This document shows positions 44-5,672 of a DNA stretch of 5,672 nt, piece by piece (the stretch's first letter is position 1; each line of letters starts with the position of its first letter). The translations under genes were made by a program, and so were the position numbers. The notes under the pieces were generated by a model, which did not search any database, had not been told where the DNA came from, and saw nothing but the letters and a program-made list of their open reading frames with translations. Origin of the DNA: Candidatus Hydrogenedens sp. (lineage in GTDB: Bacteria; Hydrogenedentota; Hydrogenedentia; Hydrogenedentales; Hydrogenedentaceae); the NCBI GenBank assembly GCA_049968235.1, contig JBMFRC010000041.1, forward strand, positions 1 to 5,672, given 5' to 3'.

Positions 44-75
44 TTGACATATGAAAAAAAATGCTAAACTATAGG
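44..75 (+). promoter_or_regulatory. candidate sigma70-like promoter upstream of the cys-rich gene
   Basis: There is a perfect TTGACA -35 hexamer at 44-49. Downstream lies TGcTAAACT at 62-70, which resembles an extended -10, and TATAGG at 70-75 is an alternative -10. Spacing is suboptimal for either. The direct repeat AAAATGCT occurs at 37-44 and 58-65, 21 bp apart, flanking the -35. An AAGGGA Shine-Dalgarno site at 131-136 lies 7 nt before the ATG at 144. Confidence 0.3.
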
Positions 76-143
76 TATTGGAAAGTTGAATAACGAAAGT
101 AGTAGTCAATCAAACCAGAAGCATCAAAATAAGGGAACCTGCC

Positions 144-620
144 ATGCATATCACAAACTTCATCAAAAATTACCCTTGTATACTACTTACATTATTACTA
201 ACCTTAATATCTCCTTTATTTATTTTGAGCGAAACAAAAGTATATGCGTCTACAAAAAATCCTAAAAGCGGAGAATGCGATTGTATTTCTCAAACATCAT
301 GTCCTTATAATTTAACATATGCTATATATGGACTGGAAGGCTTTAAATGTGGACTTATAAATAATCATTGTAAGTGTAATGGTCCAGATCCTCTCAAACA
401 TTGTTCTTACCCAAAAGCAGAACTATGTGCCCCTACATCCGGAGGTTGTAGTTGTAGTAATGATTGCATGCCATCAGATTGTCCCAGGCCATGTTACCCT
501 TCTTCATGTGAAGGATGTAAGGAATACCAATTAAGTACTATTCCCTGTTCAGGGACTCCTGAACCAGGAAATTGTGGAAGATGTAATTACAAATTCAAAC
601 AACCAGGATGCGGACAATAA
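144..620 (+). CDS. small cysteine-rich secreted protein (hypothetical)
   Basis: Complete ORF of 158 aa. An AAGGGA Shine-Dalgarno site lies 7 nt upstream. The N-terminus has a long hydrophobic stretch (ILLTLLLTLISPLFIL) followed by VYA-ST, consistent with a Sec signal peptide. The mature part of about 123 aa contains 19 cysteines (about 15%) in CxC and CxxC arrangements: CDC, CKC, CSC, CEGC and CGRC. I recognise no known family. The stop at 618-620 abuts the next gene. Confidence 0.7.
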   Translation: MHITNFIKNYPCILLTLLLTLISPLFILSETKVYASTKNPKSGECDCISQTSCPYNLTYAIYGLEGFKCGLINNHCKCNGPDPLKHCSYPKAELCAPTSGGCSCSNDCMPSDCPRPCYPSSCEGCKEYQLSTIPCSGTPEPGNCGRCNYKFKQPGCGQ

Positions 621-651: not shown

Positions 652-2034
652 ATGGAAGTATACAAAAAATTACTTTTTATAGGATTGATATTTTATAGTT
701 CCCTATTTGCACATAGTTTAGAAATATATGAAGTATCTCGGGACAGCCAGGAAGTAAAGAACTTAATCCGTATTGTGAAAACGAGATTTAATGTCTTTTC
801 GTTGAAATGTAATTATACCTCTATTGTTGATGAGGAACCATACATTTCTTATTTTGAAGATAAATATGGGAAATCTATACTTGATGAAAAAAAAGAACAA
901 GCACTATCCATAAAAAATTTTGAATTTGTCTTTCAAAAAGGGAATTTTGTCCGTATTCAAACATATACACCTCCAATAAAAAAATTATCAACAATTGATA
1001 AGCCTAGAAACTTGATAGAATTATTATCTCAAAAATTTACAACTTATCAGCAGGATAGTAATCAGGATAAATTGTTTCAAACTATAAATTATTTTTACAA
1101 CGAGGAATTAAAAACAAGGGATTACTACTATGATAGTATGCTAAATAAATATGCTTATTGGGAGTGTGCACATGACAATGAAGATATGGATCCATATACT
1201 CTTGACCCTCGTATCTGCATTGGACTATGTTCTGGAACCGCGTTTAATTGGGGAAATCTTTGGCCAAAAGAGGGCTTATTTTTCTTTATTGAAGAATTCT
1301 TAGAGAAAGAGGGGATTTTTTTCTATTGTGAAGAAGAATATAAAATTTTTTGGCATTATGTAGTATATGAACATAAAACAAAGTATAAACATGAATCTAA
1401 TTTCAGTTTCTTAGACCCCATTGGTATTGAAATATGGGTTGATAAAAATGAAAACATTTCAAAAATTGCATGTATGTTTTATCCTTGTCGTATTTTAGGA
1501 CTCCAGGAAGTAAAACAAATTATTAATAAAGATACAGAAATAACATATAACACTCCAAGTATTTTATATTGGGAATATCAGTATCAAAACTATAAAGAAT
1601 TCGAAAGTGGAATACGGATTCCGCTAAAAACTACGGTTTTACAATATTCTTTTGATAATGATAATCCATGTTTTCAATCTATTGTAAAAAAATATTTTGA
1701 CACCATTAACAAAACAAAAAATGAAATGGACATAATTAAATATCGTACAGAATTGAGTGCTTGTAATGATATATCTTTTCTATCAAGAAAAATAGAACTC
1801 ACTATATATCCAGAATCAGTAATTGTAAACAAACTAATACCGGAGGAAACATTTATCGCCCCTAAACCTGATATCTCTTTATTCAAAAATATAAATGAAG
1901 CAGAACAGTTTAAAAATAGTATAGAAAGAAACAATTCTTCTTTCCCTTCATATTTGATTTTATCTTTATTTGGTTTAATCATTATTCTTTTTTTAACTTT
2001 CCTTACATATAAATTTTGGAGATGGAGTATTTAA
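652..2034 (+). CDS. hypothetical exported protein with N-terminal signal peptide and C-terminal transmembrane anchor
   Basis: The ORF is open from 574 to 2034. The ATG at 652 is preferred as the start because it yields a classic signal peptide (MEVYKKLLFIGLIFYSSLFAHS) and avoids a 47-nt out-of-frame overlap with the upstream gene. The C-terminus is a hydrophobic helix (YLILSLFGLIIILFLTFLTY) followed by KFWRW. The ectodomain is rich in Tyr, Lys, Glu and Asn with scattered Cys and Trp, and I recognise no domain. There is no Shine-Dalgarno site, but the start lies 31 nt after the upstream stop, which suggests translational coupling within an operon. Confidence 0.7.
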   Translation: MEVYKKLLFIGLIFYSSLFAHSLEIYEVSRDSQEVKNLIRIVKTRFNVFSLKCNYTSIVDEEPYISYFEDKYGKSILDEKKEQALSIKNFEFVFQKGNFVRIQTYTPPIKKLSTIDKPRNLIELLSQKFTTYQQDSNQDKLFQTINYFYNEELKTRDYYYDSMLNKYAYWECAHDNEDMDPYTLDPRICIGLCSGTAFNWGNLWPKEGLFFFIEEFLEKEGIFFYCEEEYKIFWHYVVYEHKTKYKHESNFSFLDPIGIEIWVDKNENISKIACMFYPCRILGLQEVKQIINKDTEITYNTPSILYWEYQYQNYKEFESGIRIPLKTTVLQYSFDNDNPCFQSIVKKYFDTINKTKNEMDIIKYRTELSACNDISFLSRKIELTIYPESVIVNKLIPEETFIAPKPDISLFKNINEAEQFKNSIERNNSSFPSYLILSLFGLIIILFLTFLTYKFWRWSI

Positions 2035-2095: not shown

Positions 2096-2437
2096 ATGTT
2101 TCCTTTTATTAAAATATCGACATATTTTGCAGAATTTTACAACATTTTTAATTTTCTTGCGGTGTTTGTTATTGTTTTATTAGGTGTTCGGTGGAATTAT
2201 AGGTATGGGAAGAAATATCCCTTAAGATTGGGGATGTTGCTTCTGTCAGCACCGTTTGCTTTTCTGATTGACAGGATATTTTTCTTTCTTTTCCTTGCCC
2301 GTCCTTCTTCTAAGATGCAGTTTTTTAATCTGGAGAGAGGGGGAAGTATGTTTTTAGGAGCCTTTACAGGGGCTGTCTTTGGGGCTTTCATCTATAATGT
2401 TTGGGTACATTATGTATATTTTCCGATTTTATCCTGA
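2096..2437 (+). CDS. lgt: Lgt-like (prolipoprotein diacylglyceryl transferase) N-terminal fragment, probably truncated or a pseudogene
   Basis: The 113-aa polytopic membrane ORF resembles Lgt N-terminal regions. It begins FPF near the N-terminus; DRIFFFLFLA compares with ARIYYVLFEW or GRIGYVLFYNF in Lgt, and LERGGSMFLGAFTGAVFGAFIY compares with [22 protein letters not shown]. Spacing between these segments fits Lgt. However, the conserved WYG motif and the His in the GG-x-x-HGG segment are replaced. The ORF stops at about 40% of normal Lgt length. No Lgt-like continuation, including the GRxGNFxNxExxG signature, is found in the three + frames checked downstream. This is recall-based similarity, not a database search. 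Confidence 0.5.
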   Translation: MFPFIKISTYFAEFYNIFNFLAVFVIVLLGVRWNYRYGKKYPLRLGMLLLSAPFAFLIDRIFFFLFLARPSSKMQFFNLERGGSMFLGAFTGAVFGAFIYNVWVHYVYFPILS

Positions 2438-2732: not shown

Positions 2733-3068
2733 AAAACTTGTAAAGGCTTTTAACAAACCTTCGTATTCAATTTTCTAATAAAATTATGACACAAAAATAA
2801 AAAAAATGCAAGCAGTTTTTAAAATTTTTTATTCCCAGACTTATTCTTCATCAAAAAGACCTATTGTCCCCAATGATTTTGTATTTCCGAAAGAATTAAC
2901 TCGATTATATCTATCAAAACTTCCTATAGCACTATCACGGTTTCTTGATGGTCCCAAAAAATTCGGAGCATTATAATTATAGTTATTAAGGTTTTCCAAA
3001 GGGTTAGGAATCTTTGTTAAATCATTAATTCTATCTTCAATAGATGGTAGTTTCCAATTATTTTCCCT

Positions 3069-3130
3069 TTCACAATATTTATTATTATAATATACTATTA
3101 TAAATAAATAGAATTTATTTGCAAAAGGAG
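3069..3130 (+). promoter_or_regulatory. candidate promoter and ribosome-binding site for the large surface-protein gene
   Basis: TTCACA at 3069-3074 matches 5 of 6 positions of the -35 consensus. A 16-nt spacer precedes TATACT at 3091-3096, and an alternative TATAAT lies at 3086-3091. A strong Shine-Dalgarno site, AAGGAG at 3125-3130, sits 8 nt upstream of the ATG at 3139. The AT-rich context makes many alternative -10 elements possible. Confidence 0.3.
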
Positions 3131-3138
3131 TTTTGGCA

Positions 3139-5672
3139 ATGAAAAATAAACTGTTTATTTTAATTACATTTTTTATCTTTCTTCTACCCATTACTTCTTA
3201 CCCACTCGTTTGGGAATTTAATGCTGATGAAGGTTGGTCCGCAGGAAGTAATGTGGCAAATTTGCAAACCACAGGGGGATATTTATCTTTCGATACAACA
3301 GGGAGTGACCCAAGTGTTTATACACCTGATAATTTAGGTGTTACTGGTTCCAATTTTCGATTTATACATTTTGATATGGAGTTAAGTGCAACACCGACAC
3401 AAGGTGGACAAATTTATTTCATTACGAATGCAGATGGAGGTTGGGGAGAAGATAAAGTCATATACTTCTCTCCTACGGCAGGTAGAAACACTTATCTTAT
3501 TAATGTTCCCCAAACTATGTCAGCCAATGGAAAAGACCCGAATAAATGGTTGGGGCAAACAATAAAAAGATTAAGATTTGACCCTCCGAACAATTACATT
3601 GGAAATGTAAAAATCTACTGGTTTGGTATCACATTCGGCAGTAATTCACGCGGTGCTGTTTGGGATTTCGAAACAAACGGTGATTTTGAAGGCTGGGGTG
3701 GATTCAGTTGTGCTTCAGGACAACAGGTTACAGGCGGTTACTTAACTTTCAATTTTATCTGTACCGACCCCTTTGTATACTCCCCAAATGATTTAAGAAT
3801 CAGTGGCTCTGATTATCCATGGCTACAGGCGGATATTGAATATACTGCAAGTTATAACGACACTTTTCAGATTTTCTTCATAACAAACATGGATGGAAAT
3901 TGGACTGAAGGGAAATCTATAACTTTCCCCGGAAGAGTAGGTAGATTTACCTATTTAGTCAATATTCCACAAAGGTTAACTGAAAACAGCAAAGACCCTA
4001 ACACCTGGAACGGAAAAACAATAATGCAAATCCGGTTCGATACAGGTGGACAATCATCTGGTAGTGTCAAAATCCACTGGATAGGTATCCGTCGTGAGCC
4101 TATTCCCGATTGGCAATTCGATGTCGGTGACCATAAACAAGGCTGGACTGCTGTAAACCAAATATCAAATCTGACTGTAAGTAGTGGTGCTCTTAGTTGT
4201 AATACCACAGGGGGTGACCCATATATACAAGTTTACAACCAACATTTTAACCCTTCTACATATCGCTATTTATTAGTCCGTGCCAATATTACAAACTACG
4301 AGAATGATAACCCGGGAATTATGCAAACTTTCGGCTTCCCCGGAACCGGCGGAACAGGATATGTTAATAAAGACTACTATTTCTACCCCAACAATGGTTA
4401 TCAATGCATTCTCGTTGATATGGGAACACGCACTACTAACTCTTCCTGGTTAGGGGCTCCAGGAACTATTTCTTCCTTCCGCATTGACCCTGCAACTGTG
4501 AATACCTCTGCTACTTTCTATTATGACTATATTAAGTTATATGATTCATCCTCTCTACCTGCAGGTCCGTATAATTGGGACTTCTCAACTGCCGGAAACA
4601 ATAATTTATCCGGAAATAACTGCGGTAGTTGGGTTTCTGCCCGGCATTCACCCTATAGCGGAACTTCATTGAGTATTGCCAGTAATGTAGGTATCATAAC
4701 CGGCACCGGAACACTCGGAATAGAAAACCTCGGCTTTGCTGTAGGAAATACTTCCGCTTATCAATGGGTTCAAATTGATGTGAATCCATCTACACAAACA
4801 GATAGAAATGATTTGACTTTCCGTTATTTATGGAGAAAGGATGGACTTCGGTTAGGCGATGATTACAACACGCGAAGAAAATGGATTATTCCAACCAATA
4901 AAGGAATAAAACGCTATAATTTTTATCTCCCATACATTGCAGACCAGGATACAAACCATAATGGTACATGGGATGGCATCCCCCATGGAATATTACTCCA
5001 ATTTGGTGAAGGAGAAGCAGGTATTAATTCTATTACTATTGATAATTTCAACCTTCTTTCCTCTGCAAGCGTTCCTGCACCATCTGTATCTGAAGTTAAA
5101 GTTTCAGGAACAAGAACTGTCGATGTTTCCTTTACAAATCAAATGGATTCCAGCACCATTACTGCCTCAATGTTTACAATTTCAGGAACAGGAAGAGGCA
5201 CCTTAGGAGCAAATCCTTTCAGCGTTACATATCTTACAGGACATACTTATCGTTTGACCTGGATTGCAGGAGAAATGCGTGACGGTAGCGATATTACCAT
5301 AACTGTATCGAATTCTGTACAAGACGCTGCAGGAAGAAATTTAACATCTCCCACAAGCGGAACTCATACCGGTGGTGGTATAAAAATAGATGCCCCTACT
5401 GTCTCTGCTGTAACCTCTCCCGCTTTTGCAAATACATTGCCCATAACAATTAGTTATACGGGTGCTGCAGACAATACAAGCAATGTTAGTAGCATAGAAC
5501 TATGGGCTAAAAAAGGTTCCGAAGGAACCTGGGCTTTTACAGGTCAAACATCTGTTTCTGCCCCCAATGGAAGTATCAATTTCAATAGTCCCACAGGAGA
5601 AGATACATACTACTTTGATGTTGTGGTAATTGATGGTGCCGGTAATCGGAGCGATACTCCTACGGGAAATGG
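3139..5672 (+). CDS. large secreted repetitive surface protein (adhesin or glycan-binding-like), 3' partial and continuing beyond the window
   Basis: The frame is open from the ATG at 3139 to the window end, so at least 844 codons, and it has an optimal Shine-Dalgarno site. The N-terminus MKNKLFILITFFIFLLPITSYP is a typical signal peptide. There are four tandem modules of about 140-160 aa. Each begins with a W-(E/D)-F motif and ends with a segment such as IYWFGI, IHWIGI, IKLY or IDNFNL. Modules 1 and 2 are clearly homologous (GGYLSFDTTGSDPSVYTPDNL compares with GGYLTFNFICTDPFVYSPNDL, and GRNTYLINVPQ...KDPNKW...RFD compares with GRFTYLVNIPQ...KDPNTW...RFD). These are followed by at least two Ig-like modules of about 100 aa (for example TYYFDVVVIDGAGNRS). 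The composition is rich in Gly, Thr, Ser and Asn. The C-terminal sorting signal cannot be seen. Confidence 0.85.
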   Translation, partial: MKNKLFILITFFIFLLPITSYPLVWEFNADEGWSAGSNVANLQTTGGYLSFDTTGSDPSVYTPDNLGVTGSNFRFIHFDMELSATPTQGGQIYFITNADGGWGEDKVIYFSPTAGRNTYLINVPQTMSANGKDPNKWLGQTIKRLRFDPPNNYIGNVKIYWFGITFGSNSRGAVWDFETNGDFEGWGGFSCASGQQVTGGYLTFNFICTDPFVYSPNDLRISGSDYPWLQADIEYTASYNDTFQIFFITNMDGNWTEGKSITFPGRVGRFTYLVNIPQRLTENSKDPNTWNGKTIMQIRFDTGGQSSGSVKIHWIGIRREPIPDWQFDVGDHKQGWTAVNQISNLTVSSGALSCNTTGGDPYIQVYNQHFNPSTYRYLLVRANITNYENDNPGIMQTFGFPGTGGTGYVNKDYYFYPNNGYQCILVDMGTRTTNSSWLGAPGTISSFRIDPATVNTSATFYYDYIKLYDSSSLPAGPYNWDFSTAGNNNLSGNNCGSWVSARHSPYSGTSLSIASNVGIITGTGTLGIENLGFAVGNTSAYQWVQIDVNPSTQTDRNDLTFRYLWRKDGLRLGDDYNTRRKWIIPTNKGIKRYNFYLPYIADQDTNHNGTWDGIPHGILLQFGEGEAGINSITIDNFNLLSSASVPAPSVSEVKVSGTRTVDVSFTNQMDSSTITASMFTISGTGRGTLGANPFSVTYLTGHTYRLTWIAGEMRDGSDITITVSNSVQDAAGRNLTSPTSGTHTGGGIKIDAPTVSAVTSPAFANTLPITISYTGAADNTSNVSSIELWAKKGSEGTWAFTGQTSVSAPNGSINFNSPTGEDTYYFDVVVIDGAGNRSDTPTGN
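3208..5055 (+). repeat. intragenic tandem domain duplication (four modules, R1 to R4) at protein level
   Basis: R1 is 3208-3630, R2 is 3658-4089, R3 is 4108-4542 and R4 is 4570-5055. R1 and R2 share an estimated 35-40% identity judged by eye across the full module. R3 and R4 are more divergent but keep the W-x-F ... GW ... GDP start and the hydrophobic end motif. The DNA-level repeat is weak; the duplication is ancient. Confidence 0.55.

Follow-up and report, generated by a model that had tools for sequence, protein, structure and literature searches.

Tandem three-gene cassettes in Candidatus Hydrogenedens link a family of cysteine-rich exported proteins to a predicted LolA-fold protein and an Lgt homologue

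The window, a stretch of 5,672 nucleotides (nt) with 34.6% G+C at positions 1 to 5,672 of contig JBMFRC010000041.1 (Candidatus Hydrogenedens sp., assembly GCA_049968235.1), carries near its start the gene of a cysteine-rich exported protein, here called CRP. Downstream of CRP, in the same orientation, lie a gene for a membrane-anchored protein (gene 2) and a truncated gene of the type of Lgt, the prolipoprotein diacylglyceryl transferase (gene 3); upstream of CRP is a promoter that contains a run of A (Table 1). Our data indicate, with high confidence for this part as a whole, that the three genes form an operon, that such operons are organized as tandem mosaic cassettes, that the promoter poly-A tract changes in length, and that CRP is a real gene under purifying selection that founds an unnamed family confined to Candidatus Hydrogenedens.

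Table 1. Features of the cassette, in positions of the window.
Feature	Position	Strand	Description
Cassette promoter	44..70	+	-35 TTGACA (44-49), 15-nt spacer, extended -10 TGcTAAACT (62-70)
A8 homopolymer	54..61	+	Within the promoter spacer; candidate slipped-strand phase-variation switch
Conserved 5' untranslated region (UTR)	71..143	+	Shine-Dalgarno AAGGGA (131-136); family consensus AAGGAG
CRP gene	144..620	+	158 residues; NCBI ACP5UA_14220, hypothetical protein, Candidatus Hydrogenedens sp.
CRP signal peptide, residues 1-35	144..248	+	n-region MxITNFIKNYP, h-region of ~20 residues, [VAIM]-x-A, invariant Ala35
Mature Cys-rich domain of CRP	249..617	+	123 residues, 19 Cys, on a family framework of 17 positions
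Gene 2	652..2034	+	460 residues: signal peptide, periplasmic domain with a predicted LolA/LolB/DUF1329-like fold, C-terminal transmembrane (TM) anchor
Truncated Lgt-type gene (gene 3)	2096..2437	+	Residues 1-98 of ~273 homologous (to nt 2395), then 15 unrelated codons and a stop

CRP contains 20 cysteines, at residues 12, 45, 47, 53, 69, 76, 78, 87, 95, 102, 104, 108, 113, 117, 122, 125, 135, 144, 147 and 156. One of them lies within the hydrophobic N-terminal segment, and the rest follow V-Y-A35. The original prediction had described a small secreted protein with 19 Cys among 123 mature residues; cleavage after V-Y-A35 reproduced this count exactly, and all six Cys motifs that it quoted (CDC, CKC, CSCSNDC, CPRPC, CEGC and CGRC) were located in CRP. 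A random open reading frame (ORF) with the base composition of the window would contain 2.9% Cys, which gives a probability of about 3e-9 for at least 19 Cys in 122 residues, and the other ORFs of the window have a Cys content of only 0-2%. Judged from its sequence, the N-terminus is built like a Sec signal that ends in a signal peptidase I site. It combines a basic n-region with a hydrophobic stretch (Kyte-Doolittle 19-residue maximum 2.26), and Ala35 at position -1 is invariant in 11 of 11 and in 13 of 13 aligned homologues, with V, A, I or M at position -3. In the alignment of upstream regions and gene starts, the first 11 codons of CRP are conserved and yet show synonymous changes among them, indicating constraint on the peptide as well as on the DNA.

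An exhaustive HMMER scan of 1.84 billion protein cluster representatives found ten more full-length homologues of CRP (143-158 residues, E 3e-19 to 7e-5). With two extra paralogues from fetched loci, the family has 13 distinct members. At 17 positions the residue is Cys in at least 11 of the 13, and 11 of these positions are invariant. All homologues are on AT-rich Candidatus Hydrogenedens contigs, and scans of GTDB species genomes and JGI metagenomes returned the same narrow lineage only. In the closest pair of members (loci L008 and L020), the ratio of nonsynonymous to synonymous substitution rates (dN/dS) is 0.20 in the mature part and 0.08 in the signal, and it is 0.16 in gene 2. The CRP sequence is identical across three independent metagenome-assembled genomes (MAGs). 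The original prediction would have suspected a spurious or decaying ORF if homologues with conserved Cys spacing were lacking; homologues exist and they keep the spacing. The idea that CRP is such an ORF with accidental Cys richness draws on its annotation as hypothetical, on a word-indexed protein search that returned only CRP itself (other word-indexed queries found themselves or a few members) and on the partly degenerate state of the window cassette. It is excluded for practical purposes by the ten full-length homologues with their Cys framework and signal, the dN/dS of about 0.2, the conserved promoter and Shine-Dalgarno sequence, the improbable Cys count and the identity in three MAGs.

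As the original prediction had stated, CRP has no recognisable family. Sequence and profile searches of Pfam, NCBIfam, PHROGs, PADLOC and PDB gave no meaningful match, and no eukaryote-like mimic domain, another of the early suggestions, was found. The first four of these libraries had no match for gene 2 either. The AlphaFold2 model of CRP, built from an 11-sequence alignment, has a mean predicted local distance difference test (pLDDT) score of 79.6. It contains a signal helix (residues 10-37), a compact alpha/beta unit (45-97) and paired beta-hairpins (126-151), the last two with pLDDT of about 90. A fold search with this model gave no match among solved structures. The CRP family would represent a new compact scaffold, stabilised by disulfides or metal, without a solved structural relative. 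The number of Cys in the mature part is odd in 8 of 13 members. Together with the 17-position framework, this suggests that at least one conserved framework Cys is probably not in an intramolecular disulfide. A Cys-rich ribosomally synthesised and post-translationally modified peptide precursor (SCIFF/ranthipeptide or lanthipeptide-like) was considered and rejected, since CRP is a 158-residue protein with a Sec-type signal and no maturase family is encoded in the window. A phage or mobile-element origin of the cassette was also rejected, since no relatives were found on viral contigs and there were no PHROG matches.

Metal binding is a different explanation for the many Cys. The residues could coordinate Zn, Cu or Fe and serve periplasmic metal buffering or redox in an anaerobe, and the host lineage is generally regarded as anaerobic. 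The CxC and CxxC motifs would fit this function, as would C122-x2-C125 and C144-x2-C147, which lie on two predicted beta-hairpins in a zinc-ribbon-like manner; the odd and variable Cys totals fit full disulfide pairing imperfectly. However, no metallothionein or other metal-binding family was matched, and no transporter or metal regulator lies nearby. Mature CRP is rich in aromatic residues (7 Tyr and 2 Phe) and hydrophobic residues, and defined beta structure is seen in its model. A protein of metal homeostasis would also not be expected to be hypervariable, phase-variable and encoded in multi-copy arrays, the features described below. We regard a metal-binding role as improbable. Metallothionein identity in particular, a reading that the original prediction had allowed for, is disfavoured by these aromatic residues, by the signal peptide, by strands with pLDDT of about 90 and by the lack of any Pfam or NCBIfam match at E <= 1.

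The original prediction placed CRP at the head of an apparent two-gene operon with a membrane-anchored protein. The pairing proved to be syntenic in every recovered locus, whereas the unit turned out to have three genes, of which the third is an Lgt homologue. Wherever a locus extends far enough, CRP is followed on the same strand by gene 2, of 410-473 residues, and then by Lgt. This synteny was seen in the window and in loci L003, L007, L008, L010/11, L015, L018a, L018b/L021/L023 and L020. The gaps are short, at 17-130 nt between CRP and gene 2 (31 nt in the window) and 6-73 nt between gene 2 and Lgt. The only conserved neighbours of CRP, in at least nine cassettes, are the LolA-fold protein and Lgt. 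The cassettes also occur in arrays. L018 holds two complete cassettes in tandem, and L007, L015 and L020 have Lgt on both sides of the cassette or the tail of a preceding cassette. In L021, a cassette ends a 219-kb chromosomal contig, beside housekeeping genes at least 90% identical to Candidatus Hydrogenedens proteins.

Two of these loci carry further traces. At L021 8309-9153, upstream of the intact cassette, three short ORFs are frameshifted fragments of another gene 2 homologue, whose PE..F..PP motif is still present, as is the C-terminal TM helix followed by the tail HRYWGWSFF. They represent a decayed cassette, with the housekeeping genes on one side and the intact cassette on the other. 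At L015 197-1844, just upstream of the cassette, an IS1595-family transposase gene adjoins an Lgt copy (tblastn match from residue 10), so that insertion sequences are associated with at least one array. One array is flanked by the IS1595 transposase, but another lies among housekeeping genes on the 219-kb contig.

Sliding nucleotide identity between the two L018 cassettes revealed a mosaic structure. Identity is 0.88-0.94 in the promoter and 5' UTR, falls to 0.31-0.58 over the Cys-rich body, gene 2 and the first ~90 codons of Lgt, and returns to 0.81-1.00 in the stretch that begins at Lgt codon ~90 and extends 170 nt beyond the Lgt stop codon. Across the family, median protein identity is 33% for mature CRP and 34% for gene 2. 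Cassettes share, at 80-100% identity, a constant module made up of the last two-thirds of Lgt, the spacer, the strong promoter, the 5' UTR and the first 11 codons. The interior of the cassette has diverged to about 33% protein identity with the Cys scaffold kept. A probable role of the constant module is that of a recombination arm. This proposed function would account for the fact that most contigs break right upstream of the CRP gene or inside Lgt, and the breaks at constant modules would account for the poor assembly of these regions in Hydrogenedens MAGs.

The window cassette itself appears to be terminal and partly decayed, with its first two genes intact. Its Lgt is cut at residue 98, its gene 2 lacks two Cys that are usual in the family (the first behind the signal peptide, the second within the C-terminal helix), and its promoter spacer is 15 nt long instead of the 16 nt that is commonest among cassettes. 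The Lgt homology found by tblastn ends at nt 2395, just past the start of the constant module at about Lgt residue 91, and the truncation junction recurs in three independent assemblies. The remnant scores 16.7 bits with the Pfam LGT profile, which is below the cutoff, and it lacks the signature motif and the catalytic region with R143 and R239. The window contig breaks 143 nt upstream of the CRP gene. Locus L001 (1-1527) and locus L002 (1-1495) contain the same cassette at 99% identity and unrelated sequence beyond ~480 nt upstream of the CRP gene, where a fucose-isomerase-like gene is the neighbour in one and a response regulator in the other. These differences point to strain-level rearrangement or to assembly breaks at an array boundary.

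A promoter of the form TTGACA / 14-16 nt / TGcTAAACT, whose spacer includes 7-9 consecutive A, precedes every related Cys-rich gene for which upstream sequence is available. A generic promoter scan missed the copy in the window because it demands a spacer of 16-18 nt. In the 100 nt upstream of the start codon, median identity is 84% across cassettes and reaches 95-100% between some paralogues. The 5' UTR was considered as a riboswitch or structured leader and rejected, with an RNA fold z of +0.93 against shuffled sequences and no Rfam match. The poly-A tract varies between nearly identical copies of the same cassette. L002 has A7, the window A8 and L001 A9, giving spacers of 14, 15 and 16 nt, and these three copies are 99.8-99.9% identical over 3.3-3.8 kb. 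Ten of the 11 other A/T runs of at least 7 nt in this set are unchanged, and one A7 run varies in L001. Between L018b (A8) and L021 (A9), only four positions differ in 3081 nt, all in the promoter or UTR, and all seven other homopolymers of this length class are unchanged. In total, the promoter poly-A tract differs by 1 nt in three of three comparisons of copies at least 99.8% identical, the comparisons being made between assemblies and not between reads. Insertions and deletions in the -35/-10 spacer switch the Mycoplasma surface-protein genes vlp, maa2 and vmm, of which vlp encodes surface lipoproteins (PMC2268961). This pattern is suggestive of an ON/OFF phase-variation switch in the promoter poly-A tract, without amounting to proof.

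Full-length cassette Lgt copies have 273-280 residues and match Pfam LGT (PF01790) with 120-128 bits (cutoff 24.9) over profile positions 5-238 of 240, spanning the seven-TM body. They match E. coli Lgt (5azb) at E 3e-11 and score 65-69 bits with the NCBIfam equivalog TIGR00544, whose cutoff is 118.9. Y26, H103, R143, N146, G154 and R239 are essential in E. coli Lgt. In E. coli numbering, the cassette copies keep R143, G154, Y235 and R239, N146 and E151 are replaced by Cys and H103 by Leu, and Y26 is not reliably alignable. The cassette signature reads GRLGCFC[EQT]GCC[HY]G where the canonical one is GRLGNFINGELWG. Its four Cys fall at the positions of E. coli N146, I148, E151 and L152, for example in L015 4381-5202 and in L018 2261-3082 and 5417-6241, and this dense cluster, facing the periplasmic active site, may be a disulfide or metal site. 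According to a 2026 survey, N146C and E151C/D are found in distant Lgt proteins including the functional Lgt of Leptospira interrogans, and H103 is not universal (PMC13251419). Therefore, the cassette substitutions are no argument against transferase activity, and they were equally rejected as proof of a neofunctionalised Lgt. The N-terminal third of Lgt is 34-92% identical between cassettes and the remainder 75-91%. The variable third comprises TM1-TM3, the two arms and the HGGL-equivalent. The region of TM1-TM3 and the arms is tied to peptide-substrate binding and species specificity (PMC4728403, PMC13251419).

The NCBI model of gene 2 starts at GTG 574, giving 486 residues and a 47-nt overlap with CRP, and an alignment with ten homologues favours ATG 652, where the signal peptide begins. 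The protein is periplasmic and tethered to the inner membrane, and it ends in a short basic and aromatic tail (family consensus ITKRYFGWG; YKFWRWSI in the window). A PEP-CTERM/exosortase signal was considered and rejected, since the conserved APEP lies ~25-50 residues upstream of the TM helix and no NCBIfam match was found at E <= 1. The AlphaFold2 model, with a predicted template modelling (pTM) score of 0.71, has a LolA/LolB-superfamily fold, an unclosed antiparallel beta-barrel with a helical lid and a hydrophobic cavity. The kinship to LolA/LolB predicted by this model is at the level of the fold only. It points to lipoprotein or lipid handling instead of the simple receptor or immunity function that had been suggested for the partner.

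Based on these features, CRP may be exported as a variable part of the cell envelope and be served by a private pathway of the lipoprotein type, a general model to which we give slightly under an even chance. Each cassette would be an independently switchable expression unit for one variant of an envelope component, turned ON and OFF by slipped-strand changes in the poly-A tract. CRP would be its variable cargo or display subunit, translocated by Sec, cut after VYA and stabilised in its mature form by about eight disulfides or by metal-thiolate sites. The cassette Lgt would put diacylglycerol on a cysteine at the periplasmic face of the inner membrane. Its most plausible target would be a conserved unpaired Cys of CRP, because the number of framework positions is odd. 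The LolA-fold protein would shield or pass on the partner that carries the lipid or is hydrophobic. Frequency-dependent selection on a surface-exposed structure, as in evasion of phages or predators or in partner recognition, could then underlie the hypervariability, the arrays and the phase variation. Lipidation of CRP itself at a non-lipobox Cys is doubtful. The complete version is also unlikely as a whole; here the cassette would be a self-contained private lipoprotein pathway, in which a dedicated Lgt S-diacylglycerylates a non-lipobox Cys, a co-evolving tethered LolA-fold carrier escorts the cargo to the surface and the poly-A tract switches stochastically.

Several points weigh against this model. 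CRP has no lipobox. A test for the canonical [LVI][ASTVI][GAS]C failed, since the signal ends in K-V-Y-A35 before S and the first later Cys, C45, is 10 residues past the cleavage, and none of the aligned family members has Cys at +1. Gene 2 has no universally conserved acceptor Cys close to a membrane boundary, and a universally conserved Lgt acceptor can be assigned in neither protein. Acidic residues stand before the near-N-terminal Cys of gene 2 in about half of the members, and this Cys is missing in 2 of 11, including L018b, where Lgt is intact. For the same reasons (acidic residues in about half of the members; no Cys and an intact Lgt in L018b/P0030), we rejected, as a general rule, the idea of gene 2 as a lipoprotein substrate that had lost its Cys together with Lgt in the window. 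The gene 2 model was built from 10 sequences, and in these 10 members no match to Pfam LolA, LolA_like, DUF1329 or MucB_RseB was found at E <= 10, nor any match in a PDB profile search. The Lgt copies might be ordinary lgt passively duplicated as a recombination arm. The CRP and gene 2 ORFs of the window are intact and identical in three MAGs despite having no functional Lgt, so that Lgt acts in trans or is dispensable. Finally, the differences in poly-A length could stem from assembly or sequencing errors, and one other A7 tract varied once as well.

If Lgt is simply the resident housekeeping lgt, co-duplicated because its 3' part acts as a recombination arm, CRP and the LolA-fold protein could form a periplasmic envelope complex without lipidation by the cassette, either a ligand or lipid sensor like RseB/MucB or a structural module. 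The passive-duplication argument and the intact window genes beside a truncated Lgt would be compatible with such a complex. However, Lgt lies 6-73 nt after gene 2 in every cassette despite the ~30% identity of the other two genes, which indicates long-term retention as an operon. The N-terminal third of Lgt co-varies with the cassette. The LolA fold and Lgt side by side are two independent signatures of a lipoprotein pathway, which is unlikely to be a coincidence. We consider a periplasmic complex of this kind unlikely on balance.

Another possibility, suggested in part by the original prediction, is that CRP is a secreted, disulfide-knotted, bacteriocin-like toxin and gene 2 its membrane-anchored immunity protein, with the divergent pairs arising from an arms race. 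CRP and gene 2 are both hypervariable and yet linked, with a conserved leader and promoter. The tandem arrays contain decaying or orphan copies (L021 8309-9153 and the truncated cassette of the window), and a conserved signal joined to a variable mature peptide with a Cys framework is the pattern generally known from conotoxin superfamilies. On the other hand, no toxin, bacteriocin or immunity family was matched, including in PADLOC and Pfam, and the cassette has no dedicated exporter or outer-membrane release function. The partner is large (~450 residues) with a predicted lipid-carrier fold, the Lgt gene would have no obvious role, and ON/OFF switching would leave OFF cells exposed to their siblings. 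We find the toxin-immunity explanation rather unlikely.

A comparison with known systems places the variable lipoprotein-type pathway for CRP among several partial parallels. The variable surface lipoproteins of Mycoplasma (M. hyorhinis Vlp, maa2 and vmm) share paralogue clusters, a conserved promoter, UTR and signal, a divergent mature part and a -35/-10 homopolymer (PMC2268961). The features of a Vlp-type system are present here in the length-variable spacer homopolymer, the conserved 5' region and signal, the divergent mature regions and the tandem paralogues, whereas the product is not a canonical lipoprotein. Vlp has a lipobox Cys at +1 and a repetitive mature part low in Cys, whereas CRP has a 17-Cys scaffold instead. 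In addition, each cassette here adds a LolA-fold protein and an Lgt copy, the host belongs to a free-living candidate phylum of diderms and not to the wall-less pathogens, and switching is deduced only from polymorphism between assemblies. The nuSa-alpha lpl cluster of Staphylococcus aureus (PMC4470592) is also a tandem series of paralogues for exported envelope proteins, located in a region that resembles a genomic island. Its products are canonical lipoproteins served by a single housekeeping Lgt, and it is without cassette-borne Lgt or LolA-like genes and without a Cys-rich scaffold.

Skillet-1 Lipocone operons (Burroughs et al., bioRxiv 10.1101/2025.01.14.632903) likewise couple a dedicated gene for a membrane lipid transferase to a specific exported substrate without the classical lipobox Cys context. 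Skillet-1 differs in belonging to the Lipocone superfamily and not to Lgt, in using a serine acceptor and in having neither a LolA-fold partner nor Cys-rich cargo, and no hypervariable arrays have been reported for it. Polymorphic toxin-immunity arrays, such as contact-dependent inhibition (CDI) cdiA-CT/cdiI and Rhs orphans, are generally known for a constant/variable mosaic, tandem orphans, decaying copies at array ends and co-varying pairs, all of which recur here. In CDI and Rhs, however, what stays constant is the N-terminal delivery region of a giant toxin, and the cassettes here have neither a delivery system nor a recognisable toxin or immunity domain. Venom and conotoxin superfamilies, again from general knowledge, have in common with CRP a conserved signal, a hypervariable mature peptide, a fixed Cys framework and multigene expansion. 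Conotoxins differ in being eukaryotic peptides of 10-40 residues with 2-5 disulfides and a propeptide, whereas CRP genes lie in tandem operon cassettes with recombination arms.

Lgt and LolA are regarded as single-copy housekeeping machinery that serves all lipoproteins by one lipobox rule. The canonical lipoprotein pathway (Lgt, LspA, Lnt, LolCDE/LolA/LolB) is represented in the cassette by gene 3, which belongs to PF01790, and by gene 2 with its predicted LolA/LolB-superfamily fold. In the canonical pathway, lgt and lolA are single-copy and unlinked to a specific cargo, whereas their counterparts here occur in multiple copies and belong to cassettes. The LolA-like protein here is also larger, at ~450 residues, and tethered by a C-terminal helix, and no canonical lipobox substrate is encoded. 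Both kinds of genes accompany one Cys-rich cargo, and they are present in arrays of diversified copies that are apparently subject to phase switching. A functional link would mean that lipidation and trafficking of the lipoprotein type can be cargo-specific and recognise non-lipobox sites. It would also mean that elaborate surface variation, so far described chiefly in pathogens, takes place in free-living candidate phyla, presumably as a defence against phages or grazers. A private pathway, if true, would be a new substrate-specific mode of lipidation and a new surface-variation system in a free-living uncultured phylum. Lgt, the LolA fold and phase-variable paralogue arrays are already known in kind. 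Neither the libraries nor the searchable literature yielded the CRP family, which apparently has no known fold, or a coupling of Lgt and LolA-like genes, cassette by cassette, to one hypervariable cargo, and our literature searches found no description of the cassette.

The rest of the window contains features outside the cassette. A G+C-rich island at 2630-2740 lies in the AT-rich spacer ~235 nt beyond the Lgt truncation point. On the minus strand, an 11-bp closing stem (GCGGGAACUGC/GCGGUUCCCGC) encloses two hairpins and is followed directly by UCUUUUUUU. The fold has a minimum free energy of -52.5 kcal/mol, with z = -4.2 on the minus strand and z = -2.8 on the plus strand. The island had no Rfam match at E <= 1, contained no tRNA and was not present in the other cassette loci. 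It could be a small RNA, an elaborate terminator or the end of a mobile element. A 56-residue ORF called by NCBI in the spacer (2806-2976, plus strand) and a 116-residue ORF (2841-3191, minus strand) that overlaps the start of the next large gene look like doubtful gene calls, with no family match for either. That large gene (3139-5672, plus strand) runs off the end of the window and encodes a secreted protein of more than 844 residues with a signal peptide. The protein has at least two tandem ~150-residue repeats (residues ~23-172 and ~173-323; 45% identical, E 3e-44), which match no Pfam family, and a Big_5 Ig-like domain at residues 648-739. We take it for a probable surface or adhesin-type protein that has no connection with the cassette.

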